The position numbers and the translations under genes are program-made. A stretch of 64,000 bases of DNA from an uncultured Acidobacteriota bacterium (GTDB lineage Bacteria > Acidobacteriota > Terriglobia > Terriglobales > Acidobacteriaceae). Below the pieces are notes generated by a model. The model did no database searches and was not told where the DNA came from. It saw only the letters and a list, made by a program, of their open reading frames with translations. The stretch spans positions 155,553-219,552 of the forward strand of contig CAVOSN010000005.1 in NCBI GenBank assembly GCA_963698805.1, in the 5' to 3' direction. Shown piece after piece: positions 10,297-64,000 of this stretch. The first letter of the stretch is position 1. Each line of letters begins with the position of its first letter.

Positions 10297-10444
10297 CCCG
10301 TATTCACCGGGGTGCAAGACCTTTCGTGTGCGGCAGGGAATGGGAATATCCCATAGAATGAGCAAGTAACCCCCTGACCGGAAGTTTGAAACAGCAGCAA
10401 CGGACAGGCAGTCGTCCGACTTGAGTGAGAGAGAAGTTAACCGT

Positions 10445-11509: not shown

Positions 11510-11515
11510 AGCGCT

Positions 11516-11641: not shown

Positions 11642-11655
11642 AGAGAACTGCAGTT

Positions 11656-13397: not shown

Positions 13398-13544
13398 CGA
13401 ACAGTTCTCGGTTCTCAGTGGGAACCTTGAAGATGCTGAACTTAAGTGACACACGACAGAGTCAATGAGCCACGAATGCGGCGTTAGAATCGTGTATTCG
13501 ATGAAACTGAGAACTGGGAACTGAGAACCGAGAACTGATGTTCG
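13398..13544 (+). promoter_or_regulatory. Long-range RNA helix joining the mreD stop region to the mrdA start codon
   Basis: 13402-13419 (CAGTTCTCGGTTCTCAGT) is the exact reverse complement of 13520-13537. CGAA (13398-13401) can pair with TTCG (13541-13544), leaving the ATG (13538-13540) as a bulge. Confidence 0.4.
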
Positions 13545-15496: not shown

Positions 15497-15596
15497 ATTG
15501 GCTGATAGCTGGTAGCTCATGGCTGGTAGCGAGCAAGAGAGCTTTTGCCACCGGCTACCAGCTACCAGCGACGAGCCAGCCGACGACTAAAGACTA
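15497..15596. repeat. GCTGGTAGC / GCTACCAGC word hairpin plus GACGACTA tract in the mrdA-rodA spacer
   Basis: GCTGGTAGC at 15508 and 15522; its complement GCTACCAGC at 15554 and 15561. GCCGACGACTAAAGACTA abuts the rodA ATG. Confidence 0.45.
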
Positions 15597-16679
15597 ATGT
15601 CCCGCTACGTCTCATACCGCGATTTCGACTGGCTGCTGATCATCTTCGTTCTGATGATCTGCGCCATCGGTGTCTTTGAAATCCAGAGCGCCACCGTGCA
15701 CACAAAGTTCGCCGGTGCCCACATCAAGCAGCTCTACTGGATCGTCGGCGGCTTGATCGGCATGTTCCTGGTCAGCCTGCTCAACTACCAGGCGCTGCTC
15801 GAGCAGGTGCACTGGATGTACATCGGCGCCATCGCCTCGCTGATGTCGGTCATGATCTTCGGCCAGAAATATCTAGGCGCGCGCCGCTGGATCAAAATGC
15901 CCGGTGGCCAGCACTTCCAGCCCTCGGAATGGGTCAAGCTGATCCTGATTCTCGCCGTCGCCAAGTATTTCGCCGACATGCACCACCGCGACCTCTCCTG
16001 GTCGGATTTCATCAAGGCGGGAGCCATCGTGGGGATTCCCATGCTGATGGTGCTTGCGCAGCCCGATCTCGGTACAGCGCTGACGTACATGCCGATCGCG
16101 CTCATGGGACTTTTCCTCGGAGGTGTGCGCCTGAAGCAGGCGCTGATCGTCTTGATCATCGCGGGCTCCGTCATGCCCCTGGCCTGGCACAAGCTGAAGC
16201 CATATCAGAAAGACCGCCTCATCAGCTTTATGGAGCCGGAAGCCGACAAGCAGGGTTCCGGATACCAGGTCATTCAATCCAAAATCGCCGTGGGTTCGGG
16301 TGGCATTTGGGGAGGCACAGGTACTCAGACGCATCTTTCCTACCTGCCCGTGCCCCAAACCGACTTCATTTTCGCCGCTTTTTCGGAGGAACACGGCTTC
16401 GTAGGAGCTTTGGGGGTGCTCCTGCTATACTTCATAGTGCTGATGCGGTTGACGCAGAACGCTCAGACGGCGCCCGACCGCGCTGGAACGTTCGTGGTAA
16501 TGGGTGTGGTGGCTGTGCTTAGCTTTCACATCCTGGTCAACGTCGGCATGGTGGTTGGCTTTATGCCGGTCACCGGAATACCCTTACCGCTGATGAGTTA
16601 TGGCGGGTCTTCTGTCCTGTTTATGTTTTTAGCGCTGGGCATGGTCATGAATGTCCGCATGCGCCGTTTCGTGAACTGA
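15597..16679 (+). CDS. rodA: SEDS-family peptidoglycan polymerase RodA
   Basis: 360-aa polytopic ORF with FtsW/RodA/SpoVE-like motifs (QPSEWVKL, TDFIFAAFSEEHGF, GIPLPLMSYGGSS). Confidence 0.95.
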   Translation: MSRYVSYRDFDWLLIIFVLMICAIGVFEIQSATVHTKFAGAHIKQLYWIVGGLIGMFLVSLLNYQALLEQVHWMYIGAIASLMSVMIFGQKYLGARRWIKMPGGQHFQPSEWVKLILILAVAKYFADMHHRDLSWSDFIKAGAIVGIPMLMVLAQPDLGTALTYMPIALMGLFLGGVRLKQALIVLIIAGSVMPLAWHKLKPYQKDRLISFMEPEADKQGSGYQVIQSKIAVGSGGIWGGTGTQTHLSYLPVPQTDFIFAAFSEEHGFVGALGVLLLYFIVLMRLTQNAQTAPDRAGTFVVMGVVAVLSFHILVNVGMVVGFMPVTGIPLPLMSYGGSSVLFMFLALGMVMNVRMRRFVN

Positions 16680-41647: not shown

Positions 41648-41816
41648 ATTTCAATTCGAAACGAATGAGAACAAGTTTGCGCGTAGGTGGAATCGCGGAT
41701 CAGAGACCGCTGAGGCGAACGGACCAGGCTATGAGTGTGCGGCGCATGTCGATTAAGTTTGCCATTCTAGCTGAGGGCGGCGGATTTGTCTTTGGGAATG
41801 CTGCTCAGCCTGCGAT

Positions 41817-41844
41817 TTGACAGAGTCTCACCGTGGGCTACAAT
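41817..41844 (+). promoter_or_regulatory. Sigma-70-type promoter for the Sel1/TM gene
   Basis: TTGACA (41817-41822), a 16-nt spacer, then TACAAT (41839-41844), 23 nt upstream of ATG 41867. Confidence 0.5.
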
Positions 41845-41866
41845 CCGCGATGCTGGTCATCAGCGT

Positions 41867-42970
41867 ATGACAAGGAATTGGAAACTTGGACTCGGAATCT
41901 GCCTCGCAATAGGCGCCGCAGGATTAATCGTTGGCATCAGTGTTCAGAAGCTTAAGCAACGGCGGCTCATTCAAGCGGCAAAGACCATGCGAGTTCGGGC
42001 CGAACAGGGAGATGCGAAAGCTCAATTCCAGCTCGGCTATATGTACTTTTACGGAAAAGGAGTGCCCCAGAGCTACACAGAGTCGGTCCGCTGGTGTCGT
42101 AAAGCCGCAGAGCAGGGTGACGCTTTAGCCGAGTCTCGAATGGGCGCGCTGTACTTCTACGGAAACGGAGTACCACAGGACTACAACGAAGCAGTCCAGT
42201 GGTACCGCAAAGCCGCCGAGCAAGGCGAGCCTCAGGGCGAGCTCGGTCTCGCTTCCGCCTATTTCTATGGCAAAGGTGTACCCCAGGACTATGGCGAAGG
42301 GGTCCGCTGGTACCGCAAGTCTGCTGAGCAGGGGAACGCGGCAGCTCAATTTAGTCTCGGATCCATATATAGCCAAGGAACGGGCGTGCAGCAAGACTTT
42401 ACCGAAGGGATCGCTTGGTATCGCAAGGCTGCAGGCCAAGGGGATGCTGGTGCGGAATATGCCCTCGGGTATTTGTATTACAACGGAAAGGGCCTTCCCC
42501 GGGACGATCGCGCAGCGCTACGGTGGCTACATGCGTCAGCCGACCATGGGTCCACAGATGCGAAGTTCGTTCTTCGATCTTTCGATAAAAGGTCGACCAC
42601 AAGCAGAGCAATTGACTATTCCGTGTTTTTCTTTGCTCTCGGCGGAGGATCGTTCTTCCTGCTGGATTTCTTACGTTCGGGAAGGAGCCTTCGAAATTCA
42701 CTGCCTCCGGTCGCGTTTGGAATGGTGTGCTTATGCAACGCCGGGTTGGTTTTATACGGGATTAGGCACGACAGTATGCGCTATTCCGCATGCCGCAATG
42801 TTTTCTATATGGCCAAGGGCATCATGATCGGCATGGCCATAATTTTGGGTTTAGCGATCATGATCGCACCCACACAAAAGAGGACTGCGCGCGAACAGAG
42901 AAATCAAACCGAATACGGTCCAGCCCATCCCGACGAACCTAACGCTAAAGCCGATTCCACCCAGAGCTAG
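41867..42970 (+). CDS. Membrane-anchored Sel1-repeat protein with C-terminal multi-TM region
   Basis: N-terminal TM (LGLGICLAIGAAGLIVGISV). Six or more Sel1 units (AQFQLGYMYFYGKGVPQSYTESVRWCRKAAEQG and similar). Hydrophobic helices near the C-terminus. Confidence 0.8.
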   Translation: MTRNWKLGLGICLAIGAAGLIVGISVQKLKQRRLIQAAKTMRVRAEQGDAKAQFQLGYMYFYGKGVPQSYTESVRWCRKAAEQGDALAESRMGALYFYGNGVPQDYNEAVQWYRKAAEQGEPQGELGLASAYFYGKGVPQDYGEGVRWYRKSAEQGNAAAQFSLGSIYSQGTGVQQDFTEGIAWYRKAAGQGDAGAEYALGYLYYNGKGLPRDDRAALRWLHASADHGSTDAKFVLRSFDKRSTTSRAIDYSVFFFALGGGSFFLLDFLRSGRSLRNSLPPVAFGMVCLCNAGLVLYGIRHDSMRYSACRNVFYMAKGIMIGMAIILGLAIMIAPTQKRTAREQRNQTEYGPAHPDEPNAKADSTQS

Positions 42971-44291: not shown

Positions 44292-44339
44292 GTCCCTCGA
44301 CTTCGTTCGGCCGGCGCCTCACTTCGCTCGGGATGACAA
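44292..44339 (+). repeat. Dispersed 48-nt repeat, copy A
   Basis: GTCCCTCGACTTCGTTCGGCCGGCGCCTCACTTCGCTCGGGATGACAA. 43 of 48 positions identical to copy B at 46326-46373, same orientation. Confidence 0.65.
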
Positions 44340-44362
44340 ACTGAGGGTGACTCGAGAAAGTC

Positions 44363-44390
44363 AAAAGGCACGCCTTTCGGCGTGCCTTTT
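44363..44390. terminator. Bidirectional rho-independent terminator between convergent genes
   Basis: AAAAGGCACGCC-tttc-GGCGTGCCTTTT: 12-bp perfect stem with A/T runs on both sides. Confidence 0.7.
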
Positions 44391-44412
44391 CCGTGTTGAC
44401 ATCCTTTGCTGC

Positions 44413-44832
44413 TTAGCGCACGGATGCGATCACGGGGACGTCGCGCGAGCGGAGTTTCGCTTCGATTTCGTTTTCGAGAGCGCTCTTCTGGAATTGCTGT
44501 CCCCGTCGAGTACCCTCGACCCAGATCTGGTACAGGAAGCACTGGTCCTTGCCGTAGCAGTGGAAGACCAGCTTGGTGGTTTTGGAGGGCGACGAAAGCT
44601 CCGCGCGATTTGGCATCACTAGCTTGGCAGCATTCTTCTCGTAGCTCTGAATCAACAGGTTGTTGCCGCTGCTGCCGAGCGTCGAAATTACGTACTCGCC
44701 AGCCGGCATGTTGGTACGGTTCACGGTGAAGTTGAACGGCACATTGGCCTCGACCCGATTCTGTGCCAGCGCCGAGCCTGCCACAAGCGTCAAACTCAGC
44801 ACGCCAACCAAAGAGAGAATTTGCTTTTTCAT
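44413..44832 (-). CDS. Small secreted protein (139 aa), unknown function, sigma-54-dependent candidate
   Basis: AAGGAGGA, then 5 nt, then ATG 44832. Signal peptide MKKQILSLVGVLSLTLVAGSALA. The longer ORF start at 44940 is rejected. Confidence 0.75.
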   Translation of the reverse strand: MKKQILSLVGVLSLTLVAGSALAQNRVEANVPFNFTVNRTNMPAGEYVISTLGSSGNNLLIQSYEKNAAKLVMPNRAELSSPSKTTKLVFHCYGKDQCFLYQIWVEGTRRGQQFQKSALENEIEAKLRSRDVPVIASVR

Positions 44833-44951
44833 CGTTCCTCCTTTGTGAGGACGGCGGAAGCCCAGCCTTGCTGGCCCTTCGATTCCCGAATAAGGGGAGG
44901 CCGCCTTCACTGCCCCACGATTTGCGGCTGCACGCCGCATGTCCTATGACA

Positions 44952-44968
44952 ATGCACGGCGCGTGCCA
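44952..44968 (-). promoter_or_regulatory. Sigma-54 (-24/-12) promoter
   Basis: The minus strand reads TGGCACG-CGCC-GTGCAT against the consensus TGGCACG-N4-TTGCW. It lies about 120 nt upstream of the small secreted-protein ATG and next to a sigma-54 activator gene. Confidence 0.65.
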
Positions 44969-45089
44969 ACCGCTGCCGGGAACTACGCGTCGGCCCTTTT
45001 GAGTGGCGTAAGTTGGTGAGGCGGTTCGCCCTTCGAACGCGGGTCCTGCCAAGCCCAAAGAAAGCTTGTAACGAATAAGCGGACCGTTT

Positions 45090-45109
45090 CACTAACCCAT
45101 CAGTTAGTG
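45090..45109. promoter_or_regulatory. Inverted repeat, candidate activator binding site (UAS/operator)
   Basis: CACTAAC-ccatca-GTTAGTG, about 130 nt upstream of the -24 element and just upstream of the activator gene start. Confidence 0.3.
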
Positions 45110-45120
45110 GGCCTCGCTGT

Positions 45121-46218
45121 TTGGTTCCACCTGAGGATGGCGAGTCTGGGAGAATAACAGTGCTGGGCTGGGCGGAGTCTGAGAGAGAGCGATGTGCGCA
45201 TGCATTGGTTGCTCGATGTGCGCACGGGGCCGTGAACTGCAGATATGAGATCGTCGGCGATAGCGCTAAGCTGCGGGATTTGCTCGAACTGATCGAGCGC
45301 GTGGCGCCGACCTCTTCTACAGTTCTGATCCAGGGAGAAAGCGGAACTGGAAAAGAATTGGTTGCGCGCGCACTGCACCGCAACAGCCCGCGCGCGGATG
45401 GACCACTCATCGCGATCAATTGTGCAGCTCTCACCGAAACACTCCTGGAGAGTGAACTGTTTGGCCATGAGAAGGGCGCGTTCACTGGCGCCATCTCGCG
45501 CAAGAAGGGGAAGATCGAGATGGCGGAAGGCGGGACATTGTTTCTCGACGAGATCAGCGAACTCGCAGGGGGCATGCAGGCGAAACTGTTGCGCGCGTTG
45601 CAGGAGCGGGAGTTTGATCCGGTGGGCGGAACGCGATCGGTGAAGGTCAATGTGCGCGTGATTGCCGCGACCAATCGCAATCTTGCGGAGGAAGTGCAGG
45701 CGGGGAGGTTCCGCAGCGATCTGTTCTATCGGCTGAATGTGGTGAGTCTGACGACGCCCAGTTTGCGTGACAGACGCGAGGATATCCCGCTGCTGGCGCA
45801 GAATTTTGTTGCAAAGGTCAGCGAGAAATATCACGTGCCTCCCAAAAAGCTCTCGGCCGAGGCGCTCACCCTGTTGATGCAGTACGACTGGCCGGGCAAT
45901 GTGCGTGAACTGGAGAACGCGATCGAGCGGGCGGTAGTGCTGGGGGCGTCGGAGGAGATTGTTGCTGAGGACTTGCCCGCTACCCTGCGCGAACCAGTGC
46001 ATTGCGAGACGGCGGACTCGGGTTTTCAGGGAGCGGTGAAGGAAAACAAGAAGCAGTTGGTGCTGCAGGCTCTTGAAAAAGCCAACGGCTACTATGTGGA
46101 CGCTGCGAAGATTCTGGGGTTGCATCCCAATTCGCTGTTGCGCTTGATTCGAACACTGGGGCTGCGAACTGTCGCGAACGGAGCGGTTGGGCCGCACGTG
46201 GGGCGGTTGCCTGCTTAG
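45121..46218 (+). CDS. Sigma-54-dependent transcriptional activator lacking an N-terminal sensory/receiver domain (PspF-like architecture)
   Basis: AAA+ core (GESGTGKE Walker [16 protein letters not shown] with GAFTGA loop) begins within about 45 aa of any possible start (TTG 45121 or GTG 45160). C-terminal Fis-type HTH ([17 protein letters not shown]). Confidence 0.9.
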
Positions 46219-51010: not shown

Positions 51011-51066
51011 GCATTTCGTTGGGCATCGTCACAGAACGTTCAAGCATCGTCGCTTATACTTCGGGC

Positions 51067-52035
51067 ATGAAAGTTCTGGTGATTGGCGGCGCCGGGTATA
51101 TCGGCAGTCACGCGGCGCGCATCCTGCGGCGGCATGGTCACGATGTCATCATTTATGACAATCTTTCAACCGGCCACGAGTTTCTCGCGAAAGGCTTTGA
51201 ACTCGTGGTCGGAGATATCGCGGAGAACGACAAGCTTCGCCGCGAATTGAGCCGCGTCGAGGCAGTGATGCACTTCGCTGCGCACGCCTACGTCGGCGAG
51301 TCGACCGCCAATCCCAGGAAGTATTTTCGAAACAACGTGGAGAGCGCGCTGACGCTTCTGAACGCCACGCTGGATACCGGCATCAAGAAATTCGTGTTTT
51401 CCTCCACCTGCGCGGTATACGGAACGCCTGCCAAGGTGCCGATCACGGAAGGCACTCCGCGCCAGCCCATCAATCCGTACGGAGTGACGAAGCTTTTCAT
51501 GGAAAACGCGCTGGAAGCTTACGATCACGCCTACGGGTTGCGATTTGCGGCCCTGCGCTATTTCAATGCTGCCGGTGCCGACGAAAACGGAGAGATCGGG
51601 GAAGTTCACAGCCCCGAGACGCACCTGATCCCTCTGGCGCTGCGAGCTACGCGAAAAGAATCTGAGCCGCTGCAGATTTTTGGAACCGACTATCCCACGA
51701 GCGATGGAACTTGTATTCGCGATTACATCCACGTGAACGATCTGGGGGAAGCGCACGCCCTGGCGCTAAGTCGGTTGGCGGAAGGGCAGCCTTCATTCGC
51801 TGCGAACCTTGGCACGGGACAGGGGTACTCGGTGGTCGAAATTTTGAAAGCCGTGGAGCAGGTGACGCGGACCCCAGTCCATCGCAACGAAGTGCCACGC
51901 CGCGCCGGCGATCCCCCGGAGTTAGTTGCAGATCCTGCGCGCGCGCAACATTTGCTGGGATGGAAGGCGAACCGTTCGCTGCACGACATCGTGACGACCG
52001 CCTGGAAATGGATGCAGAAGTACGAATCGCGCTGA
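51067..52035 (+). CDS. galE: UDP-glucose 4-epimerase
   Basis: MKVLVIGGAGYIGSH Rossmann motif and PYGVTK (YxxxK). 322 aa from ATG 51067. Confidence 0.9.
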   Translation: MKVLVIGGAGYIGSHAARILRRHGHDVIIYDNLSTGHEFLAKGFELVVGDIAENDKLRRELSRVEAVMHFAAHAYVGESTANPRKYFRNNVESALTLLNATLDTGIKKFVFSSTCAVYGTPAKVPITEGTPRQPINPYGVTKLFMENALEAYDHAYGLRFAALRYFNAAGADENGEIGEVHSPETHLIPLALRATRKESEPLQIFGTDYPTSDGTCIRDYIHVNDLGEAHALALSRLAEGQPSFAANLGTGQGYSVVEILKAVEQVTRTPVHRNEVPRRAGDPPELVADPARAQHLLGWKANRSLHDIVTTAWKWMQKYESR

Positions 52036-52111
52036 CCAGACTTGCAGAATGAGGAAAACCGCGGCGTCTGCGCATTTATACTCGATGGGCAAGTCCTGAG
52101 GGATAGCAGCC

Positions 52112-54016
52112 GTGTGCGGAATTGTGGGGATTCTGGCGCGAGGATCCGAAGTTCCAGAACAGTTGCTGGAGCGGGCAACCCAATCGCTCGCCCATCGCGG
52201 GCCCGATGATCACGGCACCGTTATCCTTCGCGAAACGGTACCCGAGCCACTCGAACTCGGCCTGGGCAACCGCCGCCTGGCCATCCTCGACCTTTCGCCG
52301 TTAGGCCACCAGCCGATGCAGGATCCCACCACGGGCAACTGGCTCGTCCACAACGGCGAAATCTATAACTTTCGCGAAGTGCGCACCCGGCTCCAGCAGG
52401 AAGGGGTTCAGTTCGTCAGCCAGTCTGATACGGAAGTGATCCTGAAGGCGTATGCGCGCTGGGGTGAAGATTGTGTGGCCGAGTTCCGCGGAATGTTTGC
52501 CTTCGCGTTGTGGGACGCGAAGCATCATCGATTGCTGATCGCGCGCGACCCGATGGGAATCAAGCCACTGTACTACTGGAACAGCGATCGACATTTTCTG
52601 TTTGCGTCCGAGCTGCGAACTTTGCTGCAGACGGGGCTGATCCCGCGCAAGCTGAATCACAGCGCCCTGTTGAACTACCTTGCGTTCGGATCCGTGTACG
52701 AACCCGATACCTTGATTGATGGCGTGTTCGCCTTGCCGCCGGGTCACGTGCTCACGTGGGAAGGTGGGCGAGTTTCTGTGCGCCAGTACTGGGATCTTGG
52801 CAGTGAAAAAGCGGGAACAGCGCCAGCAAGTTCAAACGGACATCATTCCGCCGATCACAGCCAGGTAGCGGCGTTGCTTGATGAGTCCGTGCGAATGCAA
52901 CTGGTTAGCGATGTGCCGGTCGGCGTGTTTCTTTCTGGGGGCATCGATTCGAGCAGCCTGGTTGCGATCCTGAGCCGCGCCGGCGTGCGAGCGAGCACGT
53001 TTTCGATTGTGTTTCGCGAAGCCGACTTTTCTGAGGCAGAACACTCTCGGGCAGTGGCCGCCTTGTTCAAGACAGATCATCACGAACTGCCAGTCTCTCA
53101 GGAAGATGCCCTCGCCGCGATTCCCGATGCACTGCGTGCGATGGATCAGCCGACCATCGACGGTGTGAACACGTATTTCGTCTCCCAGCGGACGCGCGCA
53201 GCAGGTGTGAAGGTGGCGTTATCGGGGCTGGGGGGAGACGAAATTTTCGGCGGGTACGGCAGTTTCCATGCGGTACCGCGCATGGAACGGTACGGCCAAC
53301 TCTGGGCGAATGTGCCGGGAGTGGCGCGCATGGCCATGTCTGGAGCATTCGAGTTGCTGGCGCCCGCGAGCGATCAGAGCCGCAAGCTGGCGGCCCTGAT
53401 CCGGGGCAACGGCAACGTGGTGCATCCATACTTTTTATCACGCCAGTTGTTCGTCCCCCGCACTCGCGCCGGCCTGATGCCTTCGCTTTCGCGCGAGACC
53501 CTGCAGCAGGCTGAGGCGCCGCTAAAGGAAAGCCTGCGACACACCAGAGGCATGGACCCGATCAACCGCGTTTCCTACCTTGAGTCGCGGTGTTATATGC
53601 TCAACACTTTGCTGCGCGATTCCGACATCATGAGCATGGCGCACGGGCTGGAGCTGCGCGTTCCGTTGATCGACCATTGCCTGGCTCAGCAAATGATCGC
53701 GATACCGGGAAGCTTGAAAGTAGGGGGTCCGTCGCCCAAGCATCTTCTGGTAGACGCGTTGCAGGGCGCTTTGCCCGATACGATTGTCCGGCGGCCGAAA
53801 AAGGGATTTACCCTGCCTTTCCAACATTGGATGCGGGACACGCTCCGGGCCGAAGTAGAGAGCACGTTGAAGAGAATCGGTAGCGGGCCGCTGAATGGAA
53901 TCGTGAGTTCTGAAGCTGCGCTGAGCGTGTGGGCCGGATTCGTGCGTGGTGAAACATCGTGGTCGCGTCCCTGGGCTCTCTTTGTTTTGCAGCGATGGTG
54001 CGAACAGAATATCTAG
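52112..54016 (+). CDS. Asparagine synthase-like glutamine amidotransferase, paralogue 1
   Basis: GTG start then CGIVG (Ntn Cys). PP-loop FLSGGIDSSSLVA. 634 aa, intact. Confidence 0.9.
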   Translation: MCGIVGILARGSEVPEQLLERATQSLAHRGPDDHGTVILRETVPEPLELGLGNRRLAILDLSPLGHQPMQDPTTGNWLVHNGEIYNFREVRTRLQQEGVQFVSQSDTEVILKAYARWGEDCVAEFRGMFAFALWDAKHHRLLIARDPMGIKPLYYWNSDRHFLFASELRTLLQTGLIPRKLNHSALLNYLAFGSVYEPDTLIDGVFALPPGHVLTWEGGRVSVRQYWDLGSEKAGTAPASSNGHHSADHSQVAALLDESVRMQLVSDVPVGVFLSGGIDSSSLVAILSRAGVRASTFSIVFREADFSEAEHSRAVAALFKTDHHELPVSQEDALAAIPDALRAMDQPTIDGVNTYFVSQRTRAAGVKVALSGLGGDEIFGGYGSFHAVPRMERYGQLWANVPGVARMAMSGAFELLAPASDQSRKLAALIRGNGNVVHPYFLSRQLFVPRTRAGLMPSLSRETLQQAEAPLKESLRHTRGMDPINRVSYLESRCYMLNTLLRDSDIMSMAHGLELRVPLIDHCLAQQMIAIPGSLKVGGPSPKHLLVDALQGALPDTIVRRPKKGFTLPFQHWMRDTLRAEVESTLKRIGSGPLNGIVSSEAALSVWAGFVRGETSWSRPWALFVLQRWCEQNI

Positions 54017-54026
54017 CGAGTTTTGC

Positions 54027-54926
54027 ATGCAGGAAGTAGAACAGACCCCAAGTCTCCAGCGCCGCACGTCTCCGGTACAAAAGTTGCCGGTGACGGTCAT
54101 TATTCCTGTGCGCAACGAGGCAAAGAATCTTCCGCGTTGTCTGAGGTCTCTGGGCGAAGTGGGTGAAGTGATTGTGGTGGACTCGCACAGCACAGACGCC
54201 ACGGTTGAAATCGCGCGCGAGTTCGGCGCGCAAGTCGTACAGTTTCATTACCAGGGTGGATGGCCGAAAAAGCGGCAGTGGGCTATGGACACCCTCCCGC
54301 TGGCCCATGACTGGGTTCTGCTACTCGATGCTGATGAAGTCCTAACTCCCGACTTGACCGCCGAAATTCGACGCGCCATCCAGAGCACGGAGATCAACGG
54401 TTACTACATCGCGCTCAGGATGTACTTCCTTGGCCGGGTGTTGCGCCACAGTGATGCCAGCTTCTGGAAGTTGTCACTTTTTCGCCGAGGGAAGGGAAAG
54501 TACGAGTGCCGGCTGAAGGATCAGGACGCTTCGATGGCGGATATGGAGGTCCATGAACACGTCTTCGTGGAGGGCAAGACCGCACGCCTGCAACATCCCC
54601 TGATTCATCACAACATAGAGTCGCTTTCACGATACATCCAGAAACACGATGAATATTCGAACTGGGAAGCGAAGGTGCTTTCGCAGGAATCTGGTGGGAG
54701 CGAAATTTCGGCTTCGTTGTTCGGAACCCAGGCGCAACGCCGCCGTTGGCTCAAGCAGAGACTTTTCGCAGTCCCGGGTTCACCCGTGCTTTTGTTTCTT
54801 TACCGGTATGTCTTCCGCCTTGGTCTTCTCGACGGCGTGCCGGGGCTGATTTATAGCAGCTTTCAAGCAGTCCAGATGTTTCACACCAAATCCAAAATCT
54901 ACGAATTACGCTCCAAAAAGGATTAG
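54027..54926 (+). CDS. Family 2 glycosyltransferase
   Basis: VTVIIPVRNEAKNL and LLLDADEVL (DxD) motifs. ATG 54027 lies 10 nt after the upstream stop. Confidence 0.85.
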   Translation: MQEVEQTPSLQRRTSPVQKLPVTVIIPVRNEAKNLPRCLRSLGEVGEVIVVDSHSTDATVEIAREFGAQVVQFHYQGGWPKKRQWAMDTLPLAHDWVLLLDADEVLTPDLTAEIRRAIQSTEINGYYIALRMYFLGRVLRHSDASFWKLSLFRRGKGKYECRLKDQDASMADMEVHEHVFVEGKTARLQHPLIHHNIESLSRYIQKHDEYSNWEAKVLSQESGGSEISASLFGTQAQRRRWLKQRLFAVPGSPVLLFLYRYVFRLGLLDGVPGLIYSSFQAVQMFHTKSKIYELRSKKD

Positions 54927-54933
54927 TCCAGGG

Positions 54934-56925
54934 ATGTGCGGGATTAGCGGCGTGGTGAATTGCGGGAGCAGGGAAGTGCTTGCCCGGATGACGCACGTCC
55001 AGAAGCACCGCGGCCCCGACGATTCGGGCCTCTGGGAGCAGCGCTTTCCGGACGGTACTTACGTTGGACTCGGCAGCCGCCGTCTTGCCATCCTCGACCT
55101 CTCGCCCAGTGGCCACATGCCCATGATGAATGCGGACCGCTCGGTCTGCATTACATACAACGGGGAGGTCTACAACTTCCGCGATCTGCGCCGGGAACTC
55201 GAGAGCAAGGGATACCGCTTCGTCTCCGACACCGACACGGAAGTTGTGTTGCACCTCTACGAAGAAGAAGGGCCGGAATGTGTCCGGCGCTTGAATGGGA
55301 TCTTTGCGTTTGCGATCTGTGATACGCGATCGGGTACGCCGGTGGTTTTTGTGGCGCGCGATCACTTTGGGGTGAAGCCTTTTTACTACTGGTACCGCGG
55401 CCGGCAGATGGCGTTCGCGTCGGAGGCGAAGGCTCTGCTGGAGGTTCCCGGAATCACGCCAGAGCTCGACACGCAGTCGCTGCATCAGTACCTGACATTC
55501 CTGTGGGTGCCCGATCCCAAGACGATTTTTCGTGGCATCTTCAAACTGCCCGCTGGGTACTACGCCATTCTTAAGGGTGGGGAGTTGGCGATCACGAAGT
55601 ATTGGGATCTGACCTTCCCTGCGGCTGACCAGCCATATTCACGGTCTGAGGAGGATCTTGCGCAGGAAATTCGGGAACGATTCCAACGCTCGGTGGAAGC
55701 GCAAATGGTTAGCGACGTCCCGATCGGTGCATTCCTGAGTGCGGGACTCGATTCCTCGAGCATCGTCGCGATGATGAGGCGCGCCACCACCCAGCCGGTG
55801 CGCACTTATACGATCACATTTCCGCGCAAGTATCGTGTCGGCGAGACGGCTCTGGACGATCCAGCAGTTGCAGCGCGCCTGGCACAGCATCTGGGCTGCG
55901 AGAACGAGCAGATTGTCGTCGAACCAGATGTTGCAACCCTCTTGCCGCAACTCACCTGGCACATGGATGAGCCAACGGCGGATCCGGCGATCATTCCTGC
56001 TTACCTGGTCTGCCGGGCAGCTCGGAGACAGGCGACTGTTCTGCTTTCTGGCGTTGGCGGAGATGAACTTTTTGCCGGCTACCGCAAGCACGTGGCGCAC
56101 GGTTGGGCGGAGCAGTATGGCAGGCTGCCGGCCTTTGCGCGCAAGCTGTTCGAGCCTGCCATTCTGAAGTTGCCCAGCCTGCGCGGAACACCGATGAAAG
56201 GCGGAGCCCGTCTCGCCAAGAAAATGGCCCGCAGCGCGTCGCTCAGTCCGACTGCGCGGTTCGTGATGAACTGTACCTATCTGGATCAGGAACAGAAGGC
56301 ATCGCTGTATACGGGAGATTTATTGAGCGATCTTTCAAATGTCGAGCCTGCCGAGCGGCACTACGCGGCTTTCGACGAAGTGTCGCATGCTGACTTTCTC
56401 AACCAGATGCTCTATCTCGATACGAAGATATTCATGGTGAGTCTGAACCTTACCTATAACGACAAGATGAGCATGGCTTCGTCGGTGGAGGTGCGCGTTC
56501 CTTTCCTTGATCGCGAGCTGGCGGAGTTCGTGGCATGGAATGTTCCGCCCCATATGAAGCTGCGAGGTGTGCTGCGTCCGACCACCAAGTACATTTTCCG
56601 GAAAGCGATGCACGATGTTCTACCCGCCGAAGTCCTGCGGCAACCGAAGGCAGGATTCGCCGCTCCGGTAGACTATTGGCTGGCGCACGACCTCAAGGAA
56701 ATGGTGGACGATTTGCTCTCCGGCAAGCAGATTCGCGACCGCGGGCTTTTTCAACCTGAAAAATTACGCACTCTGGTGGACGAGCAGCGGCGCGGCACCA
56801 ACGACTGGTCGATGCAAATCTGGCAATTTCTGACGCTCGAATTGTGGATGCGAATGTTTCTCGATGGCGGAGCGCGAAAGTTGGGAGAGGAAACGATCCA
56901 GTCGGAGCAGGCGGCGACCGCATGA
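54934..56925 (+). CDS. Asparagine synthase-like glutamine amidotransferase, paralogue 2
   Basis: MCGISG (Ntn Cys). PP-loop FLSAGLDSSSIVA. 663 aa, intact. Confidence 0.9.
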   Translation: MCGISGVVNCGSREVLARMTHVQKHRGPDDSGLWEQRFPDGTYVGLGSRRLAILDLSPSGHMPMMNADRSVCITYNGEVYNFRDLRRELESKGYRFVSDTDTEVVLHLYEEEGPECVRRLNGIFAFAICDTRSGTPVVFVARDHFGVKPFYYWYRGRQMAFASEAKALLEVPGITPELDTQSLHQYLTFLWVPDPKTIFRGIFKLPAGYYAILKGGELAITKYWDLTFPAADQPYSRSEEDLAQEIRERFQRSVEAQMVSDVPIGAFLSAGLDSSSIVAMMRRATTQPVRTYTITFPRKYRVGETALDDPAVAARLAQHLGCENEQIVVEPDVATLLPQLTWHMDEPTADPAIIPAYLVCRAARRQATVLLSGVGGDELFAGYRKHVAHGWAEQYGRLPAFARKLFEPAILKLPSLRGTPMKGGARLAKKMARSASLSPTARFVMNCTYLDQEQKASLYTGDLLSDLSNVEPAERHYAAFDEVSHADFLNQMLYLDTKIFMVSLNLTYNDKMSMASSVEVRVPFLDRELAEFVAWNVPPHMKLRGVLRPTTKYIFRKAMHDVLPAEVLRQPKAGFAAPVDYWLAHDLKEMVDDLLSGKQIRDRGLFQPEKLRTLVDEQRRGTNDWSMQIWQFLTLELWMRMFLDGGARKLGEETIQSEQAATA

Positions 56926-59140
56926 AGCAGGTTCTGCAACAGCCGAGTACTGGTGAAATTTCGGTGGCGGAGGTCCCGGCGCCCCAGTTGCTGCCCGGCT
57001 GCGTTGCTGGTAAGCATTCGCGCCTCGCTAGTGTCGGCCGGTACTGAGCGCGCTTCTTCGGAGTTCGCCCGCAAGAGTCTCCTTCAGAAAGCGCAAGCCC
57101 GGCCTGATCTGGTGCGAGACGTCGTCAACAAAGTTCGGCGCGACGGATTGCTTTCGGCGGTGCAGGCAGTCCGCAGCCGTCTCGACCAGCCAACTTCGCT
57201 GGGCTACAGCAGCGCCGGCGTCGTGACCGGAGTTGGCGAAGGCGTGACGGACATCGCGGTGGGCGACCGCGTCGCTTGCGCGGGTGCTGGATACGCGGTG
57301 CATGCCGAAGCCGTTTGCGTTCCGCGACTGCTGGTCGCGAAGATTCCCGACGGTGCGTGTATCTTTCGATGAGGCTGCTTTCACCACCGTGGGAGCAGTT
57401 GCCCTGCACGGAATTCGTACGGCTGAAGTGAAACTCGGGGATGCGGTGGCGGTGATCGGACTTGGCCTGGTTGGCCAGTTGACCGTTCAATTGCTGAAGG
57501 CCGCCGGGTGCCGAGTTCTTGGGATCGACATTGCGCCCGACCGAGCCGAACTTGCCGCGCCGTCTCGGGGCGGATGCTGCGCAGTTCTGCGTCGTCCGAG
57601 TTCGCCGATATCTGCGCGCAAAAGACGCATGGCTTCGGGGTGGACGCCGTTCTGATCACGGCCGAGACTCCAGCAGCGAGCCTGTGAATCTGGCGGCAGG
57701 AGTTGCGCGCGATCGCGCCGTGGTTGTCGCGGTGGGCACCGTTGGGATGGAACTGCAGCGGCAGCGTTATTACGAGAAGGAACTCGACTTCCGCGTTTCG
57801 CGTTCCTACGGACCCGGCCGCTACGATGCGGCTTATGAACAAAAAGGGCGCGACTATCCCATCGGTCACGTGCGCTGGACGGAAACGCGGAACATGGAAG
57901 GCTTTCTGCATTTGCTTGCCGAGGGCAAGCTCAACCTGAATCCGCTCATCACGCATCGCTTCACCATTGATCAGGCTAGGGAGGCATACGAACTGATTTC
58001 TGGGGCGAGGCGAGAGCGATCGCTGGGTGTGATCTATTACTTATTCGGAATCCGCCGACTTGAGCCAGCGCGTTAATCTGGTGCCGCTCGAGTCGCAGAA
58101 CGCCGCAAGACATCAAGAGGATCTCAGGATCGGCCTGCTTGGTGCGGGAACTTTTGCAGTTGGCACGCTCATTCCCGCTATTACAACAGGCAGCTAATGC
58201 TGAAATGGTAGTCGTTTGTGCAGCCACTGGCGCGCACAGCCGGCATGCGGCTGAAAAATTCAGGTTTCGCATTTCGAGCACGGATGAGCGTGATGTCCTC
58301 GATAGTCAGGACGTCAACACGGTGGTGATTGCGACGCGTCATCATCTGCATGCAGGCCATGTGCTCGGCGCCTTGGCCGCGCAGAAGAATGTGTTTTGCG
58401 AGAAGCCGCTCTGCCTGAATGAAGAGGAGTTGGCCAAGATCGTACGCGCGCGCGGTTCGTCATCGCATGAGCAGAACCCTCGCCTGATGGTTGGCTTCAA
58501 TCGCCGATTTTCTCCGATGACTTTGCGGATGAAAGAATTTCTGGCAATCAAAGAACCGCTGGCGTTGCATTACAGAGTGAACGCCGGCGCGTTGCCGCCC
58601 GATCACTGGATCAATGATCCGGAGACAGGAGGCGGGCGCATCGTGGGCGAGGTCTGTCATTTCGTCGACTTGTTGTCGTTCCTTGCAGGCGCTTTGCCGA
58701 TCGAGGCTTACGCGCGGACGCTGGCGAATAACGGACTCTACAGCGACGACAACGTGCTGATCTCGCTGTGTTTTGAAAACGGTTCGGAAGGGACGATTCA
58801 TTACCTGGCGAACGCCGATCGCGCATTCTCCAAGGAGCGCATTGAAGTCTTCGGCGGCGGCGCCGCAGCGGTGCTCGAGGATTTCCGCAAGCTGGAGATG
58901 ACGCGCTTCGGAAAGCGATCGACTCTGTCGGCGCGCTGGCGGCAGGACAAGGGGCATCGCGGCGAGTGGCAGGCGTTTGCGAAATGCCTGCGCGAAGGCG
59001 GGCCGGAGCCCATTCCGTTCGAATCGATCGTCAGTTCCACGCTTACGACATTTTGCATTCAGAAGTCGCGTGCCAGCGGGCAGCCCGTTATCGTAGATGT
59101 GCGCGGCTTCATGCAGGCCGCACTCCGAAACGATTCATAA
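56922..59140 (+). pseudogene. Bi-domain oxidoreductase (Zn-ADH/MDR domain + Gfo/Idh/MocA domain) broken by about 7 frame shifts
   Basis: ATG overlaps the upstream stop (ATGA). Conserved sequence hops between frames near 57006, 57353, 57558, 57585, 57667, 58045 and 58180. MDR motifs (LVSAGTE, VAVIGLGLVGQL) are followed by RIGLLGAGTFA and CEKPL of Gfo/Idh/MocA. Confidence 0.75.
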
Positions 59141-59172
59141 AACTAGCTTCTGGGAAGGATGGATCGCAGTTC

Positions 59173-60908
<1,736 letters not shown>

Positions 60909-60913
60909 ACACC

Positions 60914-61990
60914 ATGCCAGAGCACCCCGCCGCCGCGACGGACTCTGTGCCTATACTGACTTTAGTCGAGCGCCTTCCCGGGTTCCGAGTACTAGCCTGG
61001 CATCGTGGAGCCTTGTACGCGTCACGCGGATACGAAGTCATGCGCGGTGATATGAACGGCGGCCGCATGCATTGGCAAAGCGTTGGCCGCTATCGACCTG
61101 CTGCGTGGCGATCGCTGACTTCGAAGAGCAAAATCACCTCTCGTCTGGTGCGCGATGGATTTCACGCTCTGGCGATCACGCCGGGAGGACATTTAATCGG
61201 GGCCGTGCCAGGGGCCATCGTGTCTCTCATGCCCGGCCAGTCGCAATTTGCCGTCGCTCATCGAATCACGCGTGGCATTCGCCCTTTGCACGTGACCGCC
61301 ACCTCGGATGGGCGCGTGTTTTTTGGGGAGTACTTCAGCAACGAACAGCGCGACGAGGTTCACATCTATGCATCACAGGATGAAGGCCAGACCTGGCGGC
61401 TCGCGTACACCTTCCCGAAAGGCGCTGTGCGGCACGTGCATAACATCGTCTATGACCGCGGGGAAAACTGTCTGTGGATTTTCACTGGCGACAACGGCGA
61501 CGAATGCAGAATTCTGCGCGCGTCCTGCGACCTGAAGACGGTCGAGAGCGTGATGGCGGGTAACCAGCAGGCTCGAGCCGTCGCTGCCGTCGTGACCGCC
61601 GAGGGCGTGTACTTCGCGTCCGACACGCCCTTGGAAGCGAATCACGTGTATCGCCTGAGTCGTAACGGGACTCTTGCAACGCTGGCCGATCTGGACAGTT
61701 CGTGCATCGAAGGATGCCTGGTCGGAGAGACGGCAGTTTTCTCCACCATGGTCGAGCCGAGCGCGGCGAATCCGTCGCGGCTTGTGTCCTTGTATGGGGG
61801 CCGGGAACTTGGCTCATGGCGCCGCATCGCGTCTTGGACCAAAGATGCCTGGCCTATGCGGTTCTTTCAATACGGCAACGCGTTCTTGCCCACCGGCGAG
61901 AATCCGACGGAATACCTGGCGGTCACAACGATTGCTGTTCAAGCCGACGATCTTGTGACCTCGATCTTCAGAATGCGGCACGACAAGTAG
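60914..61990 (+). CDS. Hypothetical protein, beta-rich (possible beta-propeller), intact
   Basis: 358-aa ORF from ATG 60914, 5 nt after the upstream stop. Repeated beta-strand-like segments (HIYASQDEGQTWRL, WIFTGDNGDECRIL). No family recognised with confidence. Confidence 0.6.
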   Translation: MPEHPAAATDSVPILTLVERLPGFRVLAWHRGALYASRGYEVMRGDMNGGRMHWQSVGRYRPAAWRSLTSKSKITSRLVRDGFHALAITPGGHLIGAVPGAIVSLMPGQSQFAVAHRITRGIRPLHVTATSDGRVFFGEYFSNEQRDEVHIYASQDEGQTWRLAYTFPKGAVRHVHNIVYDRGENCLWIFTGDNGDECRILRASCDLKTVESVMAGNQQARAVAAVVTAEGVYFASDTPLEANHVYRLSRNGTLATLADLDSSCIEGCLVGETAVFSTMVEPSAANPSRLVSLYGGRELGSWRRIASWTKDAWPMRFFQYGNAFLPTGENPTEYLAVTTIAVQADDLVTSIFRMRHDK

Positions 61991-62040
61991 AGTCGGAACG
62001 GCGTGCTATATTCGCTTCGACTCCAAAACCTGCCGCCCAT

Positions 62041-63021
62041 GTGCCCTTCGTGAAGCGCCTTCGTTATCTACAGCGCGTTTTCAGCGCCTACCTGCTGCCG
62101 GGAAGAAGTCAGTTGACGTTCTGGCACGAGCCACCGCGTGCCAATACGAGAGCGACTTTCGATCAGATCGGCGAATACTACATGGAATTCGCGTCGAAAG
62201 CCGACTACGCCGGGCACTACGATGCTTCTGGCATTCCGATGCTCGACTACCGCGGCCACATCGGTTTGCAATACAACCCGATCGCGATCGCGCAGTACGG
62301 CCTCGGAAATTACAACTTCTTCGTTCAGGAGAAGAGCGAAGAGAGACGAAGAAAGTTCTTGGCTGCAGCCGAATGGCTGGTGGCGAATCTTGCGCAGAAC
62401 GCGCAGGGAGTCTGGGTCTGGAACCATCACTTCGACTGGGAATATCGCGATACGCTCAGGGCACCCTGGTATTCCGGACTTGCCCAGGGACAAGGGATTT
62501 CGCTGCTGGTTCGCGCGCATCACGCGACTCAGGATCCCAAATACGATGTGGCTGCGCGGCGTTCCTTCGAGAGCTTGACGCGCTCCGTGGACGAAGGTGG
62601 CGCCCTTTTCCAGGATGAGCGTGGCGATGTCTGGATCGAAGAGTACCTGGTCGATCCCCCCACGCACATCCTCAATGGAATGATCTGGGCGCTGTGGGGA
62701 GTGCACGACTACGTGCTAGCCACGCAGGATCCATCCGCGAAGGACTTGTTCGACAGAGTTGTGCGTACGCTCGAGCGCAATCTTTCAAAATACGATGCCG
62801 GCTTCTGGTCGTTGTACGAACAGTCGGGAACTCGACTGAGGATGATGGCGAGTCCCTTTTACCATCGCTTGCACGTTGTGCAGCTACGCATCATGCACCA
62901 ACTGACCGGACTGGGAGTTTTTGGCGATTATGCCGATCGATGGGAGCGCTTTGAGCGCAGCCGGATCAAGCGCATCACGGCGCTGGCGTACAAGAGCGCG
63001 TTCAAGCTGTGCTACTACTAA
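62041..63021 (+). CDS. D-glucuronyl C5-epimerase-like protein (C5-epim_C domain)
   Basis: WYSGLAQGQGISLLVRAH, WIEEYLVDPPTHILNGMIWALWGVHD, YDAGFWSLYE and YHRLHVVQL align by eye with conserved blocks of animal heparan-sulfate glucuronyl C5-epimerase. GTG start at 62041 is uncertain. Confidence 0.8.
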   Translation: MPFVKRLRYLQRVFSAYLLPGRSQLTFWHEPPRANTRATFDQIGEYYMEFASKADYAGHYDASGIPMLDYRGHIGLQYNPIAIAQYGLGNYNFFVQEKSEERRRKFLAAAEWLVANLAQNAQGVWVWNHHFDWEYRDTLRAPWYSGLAQGQGISLLVRAHHATQDPKYDVAARRSFESLTRSVDEGGALFQDERGDVWIEEYLVDPPTHILNGMIWALWGVHDYVLATQDPSAKDLFDRVVRTLERNLSKYDAGFWSLYEQSGTRLRMMASPFYHRLHVVQLRIMHQLTGLGVFGDYADRWERFERSRIKRITALAYKSAFKLCYY

Positions 63022-63027
63022 TAACCA

Positions 63028-64000
63028 GTGAAGATTCTCTACGTCTCCCAGTACTTCCCGCCTGAAATGGGTGCGCCCGCCGCGAGGGCCGTGGAACTGG
63101 CGCGGCACTGGGTTCGTGCCGGGCACGACGTCACGGTGCTCACCGGGTTTCCGAATCATCCGACGGGCGTCGTTCCCGAACAGTGGCGGCCGCGGTTGCG
63201 CAATCTCGTTTATCGGGAAGATGTCGAAGGGATTTGCGTGGTACGCACGTGGCTGCTGCCTCTGCCGAATCGTAAGGCGCATGAGCGGATGCTGAACTAC
63301 GGATCGTTCTGTGTCTCAGCGGCGTGGCGCGGAATGGAACTTTCACGTCCGGATGTGGTCATCGCAACGTCGCCGCAACTTCTGGTCGGCCTTTCCGGTT
63401 GGTGGATTTCTTTCTGGAAGCGCGTGCCTTTTATTTTCGAAGTGCGCGATCTTTGGCCGGAGTCCTTGAGTGCGGTCGGTGTTGGATCAGACAACTCGTT
63501 GCTACATCGCGTTCTTGGAGAGATCGCCGGGTTCCTGTATCGCAAAGCCGATCGGATCGTTGTGGTGACTCCCGCTTTCAAGGATCATTTGACTAAGCAT
63601 TGGCAGTTGCCCGGCGAGAGAATCTCAGTCGTCGAAAACGGAGTAGAAAGTTCTCTGTTTACCCCCGAAGCCGCAGAGGCTGCGCTTAAAGAGCGACTCG
63701 GCCTGAAGGAAAAATTCGTTGCGGCTTACATCGGAACCATGGGCATGGCGCATGGGCTTGACACACTGATCGAAGCGGCTAGCAGGTTGAAAGAGAGTGA
63801 TCCGGATATCAGTTTTCTGCTGGTGGGCGAGGGCGCTGACAAGGAACGAGTCCAGGCAATCGTGCGAGAGCGGCAACTGTCAAACATCACTTTCGTGAAC
63901 CAGCAGGCGCGGGAGAAAATTCCTGCATTCATCGGGACGTCCGATGTCTGCCTGGTGCTCTTGAAGAAAACCGAACTCTTCAAGACCGTGATTCCGACCA
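63028..64000 (+). CDS. Family 4 glycosyltransferase (WcaI-like), 3' end outside window
   Basis: My own translation from GTG 63028: VKILYVSQYFPPEMGAPAARAVELARHW...FEVRDLWPES...GTMGMAHGLDTLIEAA. Frame is open to the window edge. Confidence 0.85.
   Translation, partial: MKILYVSQYFPPEMGAPAARAVELARHWVRAGHDVTVLTGFPNHPTGVVPEQWRPRLRNLVYREDVEGICVVRTWLLPLPNRKAHERMLNYGSFCVSAAWRGMELSRPDVVIATSPQLLVGLSGWWISFWKRVPFIFEVRDLWPESLSAVGVGSDNSLLHRVLGEIAGFLYRKADRIVVVTPAFKDHLTKHWQLPGERISVVENGVESSLFTPEAAEAALKERLGLKEKFVAAYIGTMGMAHGLDTLIEAASRLKESDPDISFLLVGEGADKERVQAIVRERQLSNITFVNQQAREKIPAFIGTSDVCLVLLKKTELFKTVIPT

Follow-up and report, generated by a model that had tools for sequence, protein, structure and literature searches.

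A sensor-less sigma-54 activator divergent from a small exported-protein gene: anatomy, conservation, and predicted function of an acidobacterial regulatory locus

The window analyzed here is a 64,000-nt stretch (58.7% G+C) of contig CAVOSN010000005.1 from an uncultured member of the Acidobacteriota. Its positions 44363-46218 hold a 1.9-kb circuit in which the gene for a bacterial enhancer-binding protein (bEBP) without sensor domains is divergent from a gene for a small exported protein, the two being separated by a 328-nt spacer. We consider it probable that this locus is a complete enhancer-dependent sigma-54 transcription unit, with an activator gene, binding sites for the activator, a site for DNA bending, and a promoter. 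The activator is an independently evolved sensor-less bEBP within a phylum-wide, previously undescribed sigma-54 module. The regulatory logic of the locus is conventional and does not overturn current models. The anatomy of the locus, its conservation, the history of domain loss in the activator, and the purifying selection acting on it are firm. An earlier reading of the DNA made from its letters (the sequence-only reading) had named the small gene, the activator, a promoter motif, and a palindrome, and all four were found where it had placed them (Table 1); its interpretation also held in its main lines, with the amendments given below. The closest relative in the genome collection is locus L002, from a Terriglobales (Acidobacteriota) metagenome-assembled genome (MAG), in which both genes have 95% amino-acid identity with those of the window.

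Within the window, neither the promoter motif nor the palindrome is compelling by its statistics. A sigma-54 motif scan, which the sequence-only reading had suggested and which was run as a consensus scan, found TGGCAC-N6-TGCW exactly once in the 64 kb, as TGGCACGCGCCGTGCA at 44968-44953 on the minus strand. This element departs once from the TGGCAC-N5-TTGCW consensus (G for T), and its GG and GC doublets are exactly 10 bp apart. One exact match versus about 0.25 expected, with 5 versus 8.6 expected at one mismatch, is not significant on its own. Likewise, the palindrome CACTAAC-N6-GTTAGTG at 45090-45109, which contains the only CTAAC-N6-GTTAG in the window, is not statistically compelling in 64 kb (1 found versus 0.5 expected at one mismatch).

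The promoter motif was judged to be real because its place is unchanged in all the orthologous loci that were examined. Related loci were collected with single proteins as queries, an alignment-based locus search having given no conserved stretch of 7 to 10 columns. The sigma-54 element is kept at the same position in loci with the short activator found in the window (short form) and in loci with longer, sensor-containing activators (long form). The near-consensus -24/-12 motif that had been proposed is present and conserved, and its distance from the -12 element to the ATG, estimated earlier at ~120 nt upstream of the Shine-Dalgarno sequence and ATG, was measured as 121 nt. The palindrome had been placed ~130 nt further upstream; its center is 132 nt from the -24 GG. 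In all of the first 11 related loci the same palindrome was 123 to 132 nt from the -24, with a gap of 114 to 123 nt between the palindrome and the TGGCA-N7-TGC element. The pairing of palindrome and promoter recurs in ~35 further, long-form loci.

An alignment of 30 loci, extending from the enhancer to the -12 element, has four conserved islands amid otherwise diverged DNA: a distal degenerate site, the perfect palindrome, a TCA-N5-TT box, and the -24/-12 element. The elements that the sequence-only reading listed for the promoter region stand, but two others were overlooked, the IHF-like box (45010-45019) and the second upstream activator sequence (UAS) at 45113-45128. The distal site reads TTAAC-N6-GATTG in most lineages and in long-form loci and GGAAC-N6-GCGAG in the window. 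The TCA-N5-TT box, which played no part in choosing the 30 aligned loci, is present in 28 of them, 66 to 72 nt after the palindrome and 38 to 41 nt before TGGCA. Its family consensus, AATCAnCnAnTTG, is close to the IHF consensus, WATCAANNNNTTR. Some distant loci fit the IHF consensus perfectly, for example, AATCAAAGGTTTA in L073, and the box of the window, CCTCACCAACTTA, agrees with it in the TCA..TTA core only. We consider the box to be a putative IHF-type site. Between the palindrome and this box, all short-form loci also have the block ATTCGTTACAAG, which long-form loci lack. The block could belong to a relocated activator promoter (as its -35 region) or be an extra half-site (GTTAC versus GTTAG).

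A composite pattern joining all of these elements (22 specified bases) was scanned over 185,579 species-representative genomes. There were 78 hits, versus ~6 expected by chance, and ~72 of them were in the Acidobacteriota, mostly in the Terriglobia. The ~5 hits outside the phylum equal the chance level. This enrichment indicates that the regulatory signature is real and lineage specific. About 70 genomes of the Terriglobia have this four-part layout, with nearly constant spacing.

Among the computational arguments available, the strongest for the palindrome as the predicted binding site of the activator comes from co-variation in distant relatives. Among 40 loci with distant relatives of the small gene, from Blastocatellia, Pyrinomonadaceae, and other Acidobacteriota, 9 have a sigma-54 match of at least 10/11, versus 0.14 expected. 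Loci of the Blastocatellia type have two perfect copies of CTATC-N6-GATAG, 21 to 22 bp apart, at the same distance upstream as the Terriglobia palindrome. The recognition helix reads HPNSLL in both short and long forms from the Terriglobia and HPNYLHRLIR in the activators adjoining the Blastocatellia-type loci, which are FHA-GAF proteins. Thus, a change from S/L to Y/H in the helix is paired with a change of half-site from CTAAC/GTTAG to CTATC/GATAG, and the 5-N6-5 geometry is unchanged. This co-variation predicts a DNA-specificity swap. In nine distant loci (L066, L073, L076, L058, L063, L069, L088, L091, and L092) the paired palindromes are ~140 to 165 nt upstream of TGGCAC and the promoter reads TGGCACG-N4-TCGC[AT]; in six of the nine, no activator gene lies within 3 kb.

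By architecture, the activator is a sensor-less bEBP of type Ic; it is neither a PspF orthologue nor a NifA equivalog. In the longest open reading frame (ORF), 45121-46218 on the plus strand, the Pfam domain Sigma54_activat (PF00158) starts at residue 44 (E = 1.6e-72) and is followed by AAA_lid_14 and then a weak HTH_8. Walker A, Walker B, and GAFTGA are all intact. The helix-turn-helix (HTH) segment is strongly conserved in the protein alignment (A2) despite its weak HTH_8 score. The GTG at 45160 is most likely the start, giving a protein of 352 aa, because database orthologues begin with MLGW or VLGW and a GGGAG precedes this codon. A TTG start at 45121 was rejected because it sits inside the distal UAS and the orthologues begin at the GTG. 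The sequence-only reading had allowed at most 45 aa ahead of the AAA+ core, a correct and conservative figure that becomes ~30 aa with the GTG start. It had also noted the lack of receiver, GAF, and PAS domains; Pfam shows no sensor domain, and FHA is absent too. There is no room for an upstream domain, the 328-nt spacer being occupied by promoter elements. The resemblance to PspF and HrpR that had been suggested holds for architecture but not as orthology with PspF: the activator scored 285 bits against the NCBIfam PspF equivalog TIGR02974 (cutoff, 443.55) and 240.9 bits against NF008622 (PspF; cutoff, 529), and it is nested in the FHA-GAF clade. The nearest NCBIfam profile is NifA, at 394 bits, which is below the equivalog cutoff of 528.85. 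The closest solved structure by sequence is that of ZraR, 1OJL (E = 4e-96). The type Ic bEBPs of Francke et al. include PspF, HrpR/S, and LafK (PMC3162934).

In most related loci the divergent activator is 600 to 664 aa long and has FHA and GAF domains ahead of the AAA+ core. Among the loci from the composite scan, 52 have an FHA-GAF activator and 6 have the short form, the remainder being at contig edges or without an adjacent activator. The first 30 aa of the short form can be aligned with the stretch of the long form that comprises the end of the GAF domain and the linker helix (V..W.E..E versus VRHWE.LRQE). A neighbor-joining tree built from the AAA+/HTH cores places the short forms as a monophyletic group inside the FHA-GAF long forms, with P0153 (locus L160), a 532-aa protein with GAF only, as their sister. 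This topology suggests a stepwise loss of sensors, from FHA-GAF to GAF to none. By its core, its divergent small-gene partner, and its enhancer, the window activator belongs in the acidobacterial FHA-GAF bEBP clade, without having FHA or GAF itself.

The short-form genes have pairwise ratios of nonsynonymous to synonymous substitution (dN/dS) of 0.07 to 0.18 at dS of 0.5 to 2.5, and the same GTG start is used across the clade. Because they are under purifying selection, these genes are not decaying. The sequence-only reading had considered that orthologous activators might carry an N-terminal sensor that is truncated here. In the evolutionary sense this is so, as sister lineages have FHA plus GAF or GAF alone. 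However, the truncated form is not a local artifact, because it is a stable clade under purifying selection.

The neighborhoods of the two forms were also compared. Short-form loci have a gcvT-like gene and a FAD oxidoreductase gene on one side; besides the gcvT-like gene, the neighbor is a hybrid kinase in some lineages and an amino-acid permease in others. In long-form loci, rapZ and the gene for an MsbA-like ABC transporter are on one side and mtnA is on the other. No rapZ, mtnA, or FHA-GAF protein was found in the window. The window has two Sel1-repeat genes, at 3775-4587 (minus strand) and 41786-42970 (plus strand). The second of these lies between the FAD oxidoreductase and gcvT-like genes, a position at which there is no such gene in L011. 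In L009 (5073-7286) and L011 (4966-7212), which are among the more distant short-form loci, a gene for a hybrid histidine kinase (HAMP-HisKA-HATPase-receiver) is convergent to the activator gene. This kinase was dropped as a candidate partner, since neither the window nor L001 to L004 have it and the activator lacks a receiver.

For activator binding, IHF involvement, constitutive activity, and autoregulation we infer the following. Dimers of the 352-aa activator would bind CTAAC-N6-GTTAG, with weaker binding to the degenerate site, which is more distant by one to two helical turns. The DNA would be bent by an IHF-like protein at TCA-N5-TT, ~45 nt upstream of the -24 (about -70), and the AAA+ hexamer, through its GAFTGA loops and ATP hydrolysis, would open the sigma-54 closed complex at TGGCACG-N4-GTGCA. 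The resulting transcript would have a leader of ~110 nt, encode one Sec-exported, beta-rich protein of 115 aa, and end at a strong terminator. The activator itself descends from FHA-GAF-AAA+-HTH regulators of homologous small-protein genes across the Acidobacteriota, having lost FHA and then GAF, kept only the last linker helix, and gained a GTG start 50 nt from the enhancer.

The domains lost in this way were most likely negative regulators, because the core works without FHA/GAF over long evolutionary time. The ancestral domains would in this respect be like those of NifA, NorR, and FhlA, in which deletion of the N-terminus gives constitutive activity. If they acted negatively, the short form would be intrinsically active, with the switch probably hard-wired on or set only by the level of the activator. 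The output would depend not on a ligand or a phospho-signal but on the activator concentration, sigma-54, the availability of IHF, and possibly the leader RNA. The level of the activator would probably be autoregulated in the manner of pspF, which is plausible because the activator promoter must lie within the 328-nt spacer, overlapping the enhancer. The palindrome ends 50 nt from the start codon of the activator, and the distal site overlaps the region just upstream.

Several points weigh against this proposal. The HTH_8 match is below threshold (E = 4.6e-4; 20.3 bits versus the 22-bit Pfam cutoff). The predicted transcription start site (TSS), at about 44942, is placed from the motif, and the predicted dependence of the promoter on rpoN and the activator is drawn from sequence. 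Neither rpoN nor ihf genes were seen in the 64-kb window; they are presumably present elsewhere in this genome, as would be expected for Acidobacteria. The second UAS is degenerate, and hexamer assembly may hence need a high protein concentration or a partner. A sigma-70 consensus scan gave no promoter for the activator, so that the argument for its autoregulation is positional; manual candidates (TTGTAA...TCACTA) were poor and were dropped. Constitutive activity is argued by analogy, and NtrC-type activators become inactive when the N-terminal domain is lost. It is also possible that an unlinked anti-activator lies outside the visible 64 kb.

Such a trans-acting anti-activator, similar to PspA, HrpV, or NifL, could restrain the short activator, and the circuit would then still be responsive to a signal. 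PspF/PspA and HrpS/HrpV are precedents, and just 64 kb of the genome is visible. However, a Pfam scan of 46 ORFs of the window revealed no PspA-like gene and no other candidate, and the small target has no PspA/IM30 match. Furthermore, no conserved third gene accompanies the activator and the small gene in short-form loci, where the neighbors vary by lineage. We therefore regard an anti-activator as unlikely. The sequence-only reading had stated that a constitutively active bEBP would need a negative partner such as PspA and that none was visible. The second part agrees with the Pfam scan, but the first is an assumption: a PspA-like partner is not required, because known sensor-less bEBPs can also be controlled through their own expression.

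Another possibility is that the short activator cooperates with, or is overridden by, a paralogous FHA-GAF activator at the same enhancer, through mixed hexamers like those of HrpR/HrpS or through competition for the site. Short and long forms have the same recognition helix and the same palindrome, and in the MAG QIAH01 a short-form locus (L170) coexists with a long-form paralogue (L142). However, the genome-wide pattern scan found just one such promoter in five of the six short-form MAGs, and MAG incompleteness limits this count and the argument from QIAH01 alike. With no FHA-GAF activator in the window either, control by a paralogue seems quite improbable.

The linker remnant itself might act as a minimal redox or metal sensor in the subclade of the window, as it carries at 45193-45240 (plus strand) the Cys/His pattern C-A-H-x5-R-C-A-H-x4-C. 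The first two Cys and one His of this pattern are kept among the closest orthologues (79 to 93% identity; alignment A2) and only there. The motif is absent from other short forms, such as P0140 and those of L004, L009, and L011, which would leave regulation across the clade unexplained, and no structural or family support was found. A sensory role for the remnant is thus very doubtful. That the truncated activator is a decaying remnant, with a promoter that is silent or served by another activator, is hardly credible: the loss of two N-terminal domains and the degenerate state of the second UAS would fit such decay, but the low dN/dS over saturated dS argues strongly against decay and the catalytic motifs, GTG start, promoter, UAS, and IHF box have all been retained.

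The proposed output of an intrinsically active short activator is the small exported protein. Its gene is monocistronic because a strong terminator, a perfect hairpin, follows the stop codon, and this supports the suggestion in the sequence-only reading that it is the only local target. The 75-nt stretch containing the terminator hairpin folds at a dG of -27.4 kcal/mol and is followed by a U-tract; a simple terminator scan did not list the hairpin. A 175-aa ORF from the ATG at 44940, which is used in some databases, was rejected as an over-extension, given that homologues begin with MKKQ or MKNQ and that the predicted TSS is at ~44942.

Homologues of the small protein are numerous. The 90%-identity cluster set gave 151 with E<=1e-3, every one hypothetical, and a profile search returned 10,068 representatives at 50% identity, 4,485 of them at E<=1e-10. 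The small protein has no Pfam or NCBIfam match, and there was no consistent Pfam match among 82 family members. An earlier structural model from 18 sequences had a predicted local distance difference test score (pLDDT) of 74.8, with residues 1 to 23 below 50, and gave no PDB match. The AlphaFold2 model of the mature protein from an alignment of 82 sequences has a pLDDT of 92.6 and a predicted template modeling score (pTM) of 0.84, with eleven strands and one helix. Thus, the structure prediction that the sequence-only reading had recommended gave a confident model, with no neighbor in the PDB: the best Foldseek match had an E value of 0.87 and a TM score of 0.28, and the matches were SH3/Tudor-like fragments only. 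A profile search of PDB sequences with the small family gave nothing below an E value of 0.29. Judging from the model, the fold would be either new or too diverged for recognition. Our best guess is that the protein belongs to the envelope or the periplasm, which would fit the bias of sigma-54 toward the cell exterior.

The N-terminus of the small protein (MKKQ..SALA followed by Q) is a signal peptide by sequence, and it is more conserved than the mature part (majority fraction, 0.82 versus 0.66). Because synonymous sites vary, the constraint is on the peptide and not on the DNA. The pattern MKKQxLSLVGVLSLLLVAGSALAQ is kept across loci of only ~45% identity, which is unusual for a Sec leader.

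The RNA leader of the small gene has a 5'-proximal hairpin (44923-44939) and, just ahead of the Shine-Dalgarno sequence, a GGCGG/CCGCC closing stem. The 5' hairpins of the leaders are modestly more stable than shuffled sequences (mean z, -1.3). RNAalifold on 23 leaders found an invariant 5-bp stem only, with no covariation, and an Rfam search over 44300-45300 gave nothing at E<=1. With no Rfam match, no covariation, and modest stability, no riboswitch or regulatory RNA is claimed. Most leaders (L012 and L014 to L062) hold an insert of ~70 nt, closed by GAGACGG...CCGTCTC, just before the Shine-Dalgarno sequence. The counterpart in the window is at 44850-44908 (minus strand), closed by GGCGG...CCGCC. 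The insert is cleanly missing in L031, L040, L047, L049, L051, and L056.

Table 1. Features of the locus at 44363-46218, by position in the window
Feature	Position	Strand	Basis
Intrinsic terminator hairpin, AAAAGGCACGCC-GAAA-GGCGTGCCTTTT, common to the small gene and the convergent gcvT-like gene	44363..44390	-	Fold and U-tract
Small exported-protein gene, 139 aa; mature protein ~115 aa, modeled as all-beta plus one helix	44413..44832	-	ORF, translation
Signal peptide, MKKQILSLVGVLSLTLVAGSALA followed by Q; Sec/SPase I type, without lipobox	44761..44832	-	Read from sequence
Shine-Dalgarno sequence GGAGG, 4 nt ahead of ATG (44830-44832)	44837..44841	-	
Predicted 5' untranslated region, ~110 nt	44833..44942	-	TSS inferred from -12 GC at 44955-44954
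Sigma-54 promoter, TGGCACG-CGCC-GTGCA; GG at 44967-44966, GC at 44955-44954	44953..44968	-	Motif and conservation
IHF-like box, TCA-N5-TT	45010..45019	-	Conserved position among aligned loci
Block ATTCGTTACAAG	45065..45076	.	Conserved in short-form loci only
Proximal UAS, perfect palindrome CTAAC-N6-GTTAG	45092..45107	.	Extended CACTAAC-N6-GTTAGTG at 45090-45109
Distal, degenerate second UAS, GGAAC-N6-GCGAG, ~21 bp from proximal	45113..45128	.	30-locus alignment
Activator Shine-Dalgarno sequence GGGAG, 7 nt ahead of GTG 45160	45148..45152	+	
Sensor-less bEBP gene, 352 aa: linker remnant, AAA+, lid, HTH	45160..46218	+	Pfam; start placed from orthologues
Activator N-terminal 30 aa, remnant of GAF-AAA+ linker helix	45160..45249	+	Protein alignment
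AAA+ sigma-54 interaction domain and lid	45250..46005	+	Walker A GESGTGKE 45334-45357; GAFTGA 45475-45492; Walker B TLFLDE 45535-45552
Fis-type HTH	46051..46152	+	Recognition helix at 46123-46152

In other genomes the enhancer-promoter cassette is also found without an adjacent activator. It precedes further paralogues of the small family (L130, L144, and L161) and, in a few genomes and with its IHF-like box, other genes: a multicopper-oxidase-like gene with HxH motifs and a twin-arginine leader (L097, L142, and L147), a SAM-methyltransferase-like gene (L098, L124, and L150), a metallophosphoesterase-like gene (L102), a di-haem cytochrome c peroxidase-like gene (L110), and a membrane-protein gene (L129). 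The identities of targets other than the small gene were read by eye from motifs, not from a family search. They hint at an envelope, redox, or metal theme that is too thin for a function to be assigned. In four long-form loci (L109, L121, L139, and L148) the small gene is missing and the sigma-54 promoter is ~130 to 250 nt ahead of rapZ, which suggests that the target gene was deleted and the promoter retained. An operon of the small gene and rapZ from the sigma-54 promoter in long-form loci was rejected, since the small gene is followed by a strong terminator in these loci as well.

Elsewhere in the window, a complete mreB-mreC-mreD-PBP2-rodA cell-shape cluster is at 10421-16679 (plus strand). 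At 17065-19949 (plus strand), a 501-aa ORF with an RNase G-like N-terminus (MNKELFVTSTPHETKVG...) and no Pfam match shares 22 nt, read in a different frame, with a 466-aa ORF that has an RNase_E_G domain. This pair may be the result of a frameshift or an error in assembly, or it may be an RNase E/G gene that carries a long insertion. A polysaccharide-type region at 51019-63999 has genes for an epimerase, a GFO/IDH/MocA oxidoreductase, and a glycosyltransferase and two paralogous asparagine-synthase-like genes (52112-54016 and 54934-56925).

The Acidobacteria are among the most abundant soil phyla, and to our knowledge their sigma-54 regulation is essentially uncharted; no literature on FHA-GAF sigma-54 activators in Acidobacteria was found. 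Taken together, the observations admit a broader reading that we offer only tentatively, as one possibility. The small proteins might be a new fold family, with at least 10,000 clusters at 50% identity, that is the dedicated output of an Acidobacteriota-wide sigma-54 pathway. The FHA-GAF activator might couple Ser/Thr-kinase and small-molecule signals to the composition of the envelope, and the lineage of the window might have been hard-wired on by the loss of FHA and then GAF. If this were true, the locus would provide a bEBP that is intrinsically active as it stands, together with its matching enhancer and a readable specificity code in which S/L in the helix becomes Y/H and A in the half-site becomes T. 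The promoter architecture is fully resolved into two UAS, an IHF-like box, and the -24/-12 element, and it is conserved in about 70 genomes. The stepwise loss of sensors from a bEBP that is still under selection bears on whether such N-terminal domains act negatively. The pathway is linked to a very large, uncharacterized exported family with a confidently predicted fold for which there is no solved relative. A 1.9-kb circuit is a tractable entry point, and its reconstitution in E. coli is conceivable.

The locus recalls PspF-pspA of Escherichia coli, in which an activator consisting of AAA+ and HTH only is divergent from a sigma-54 target, UAS and IHF sites are in the shared spacer, and the activator's own promoter overlaps the enhancer, as would be expected here. 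However, the first target of PspF is PspA, which is cytoplasmic and an anti-activator, whereas the single target here is Sec-exported and, because it is exported, cannot contact the activator. Also unlike PspF, the short form of the window arose independently, from an FHA-GAF lineage. In the ZraR/ZraS-zraP system of enterobacteria, a gene for a periplasmic protein of ~140 aa is likewise under a sigma-54 promoter and divergent from a bEBP gene. However, ZraR has a receiver and a cognate kinase, and ZraP is helical and CpxP/Spy-like. The small protein does not have the helical LTXXQ/CpxP-like fold of the ZraP/CpxP/Spy chaperones, its model being all-beta with one helix.

NifA, NorR, and FhlA resemble the ancestors of the window activator, which had GAF directly ahead of the AAA+ core, but the window protein has no GAF and its ancestors had an additional FHA. 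In the FHA-bEBPs of Myxococcus xanthus, FHA is fused to the sigma-54 AAA+ core, implying Ser/Thr kinase input, and the targets are developmental. Those proteins are from another phylum and are not known to have a GAF domain. HrpR/HrpS and LafK, which are likewise type Ic bEBPs (PMC3162934), resemble the window activator in having no signal-recognition domain. They are controlled by expression level and partner proteins. The likeness is one of architecture: their targets are type III secretion and lateral flagella, and HrpR/HrpS form a hetero-hexamer, in contrast to a circuit whose predicted output is a single exported protein.

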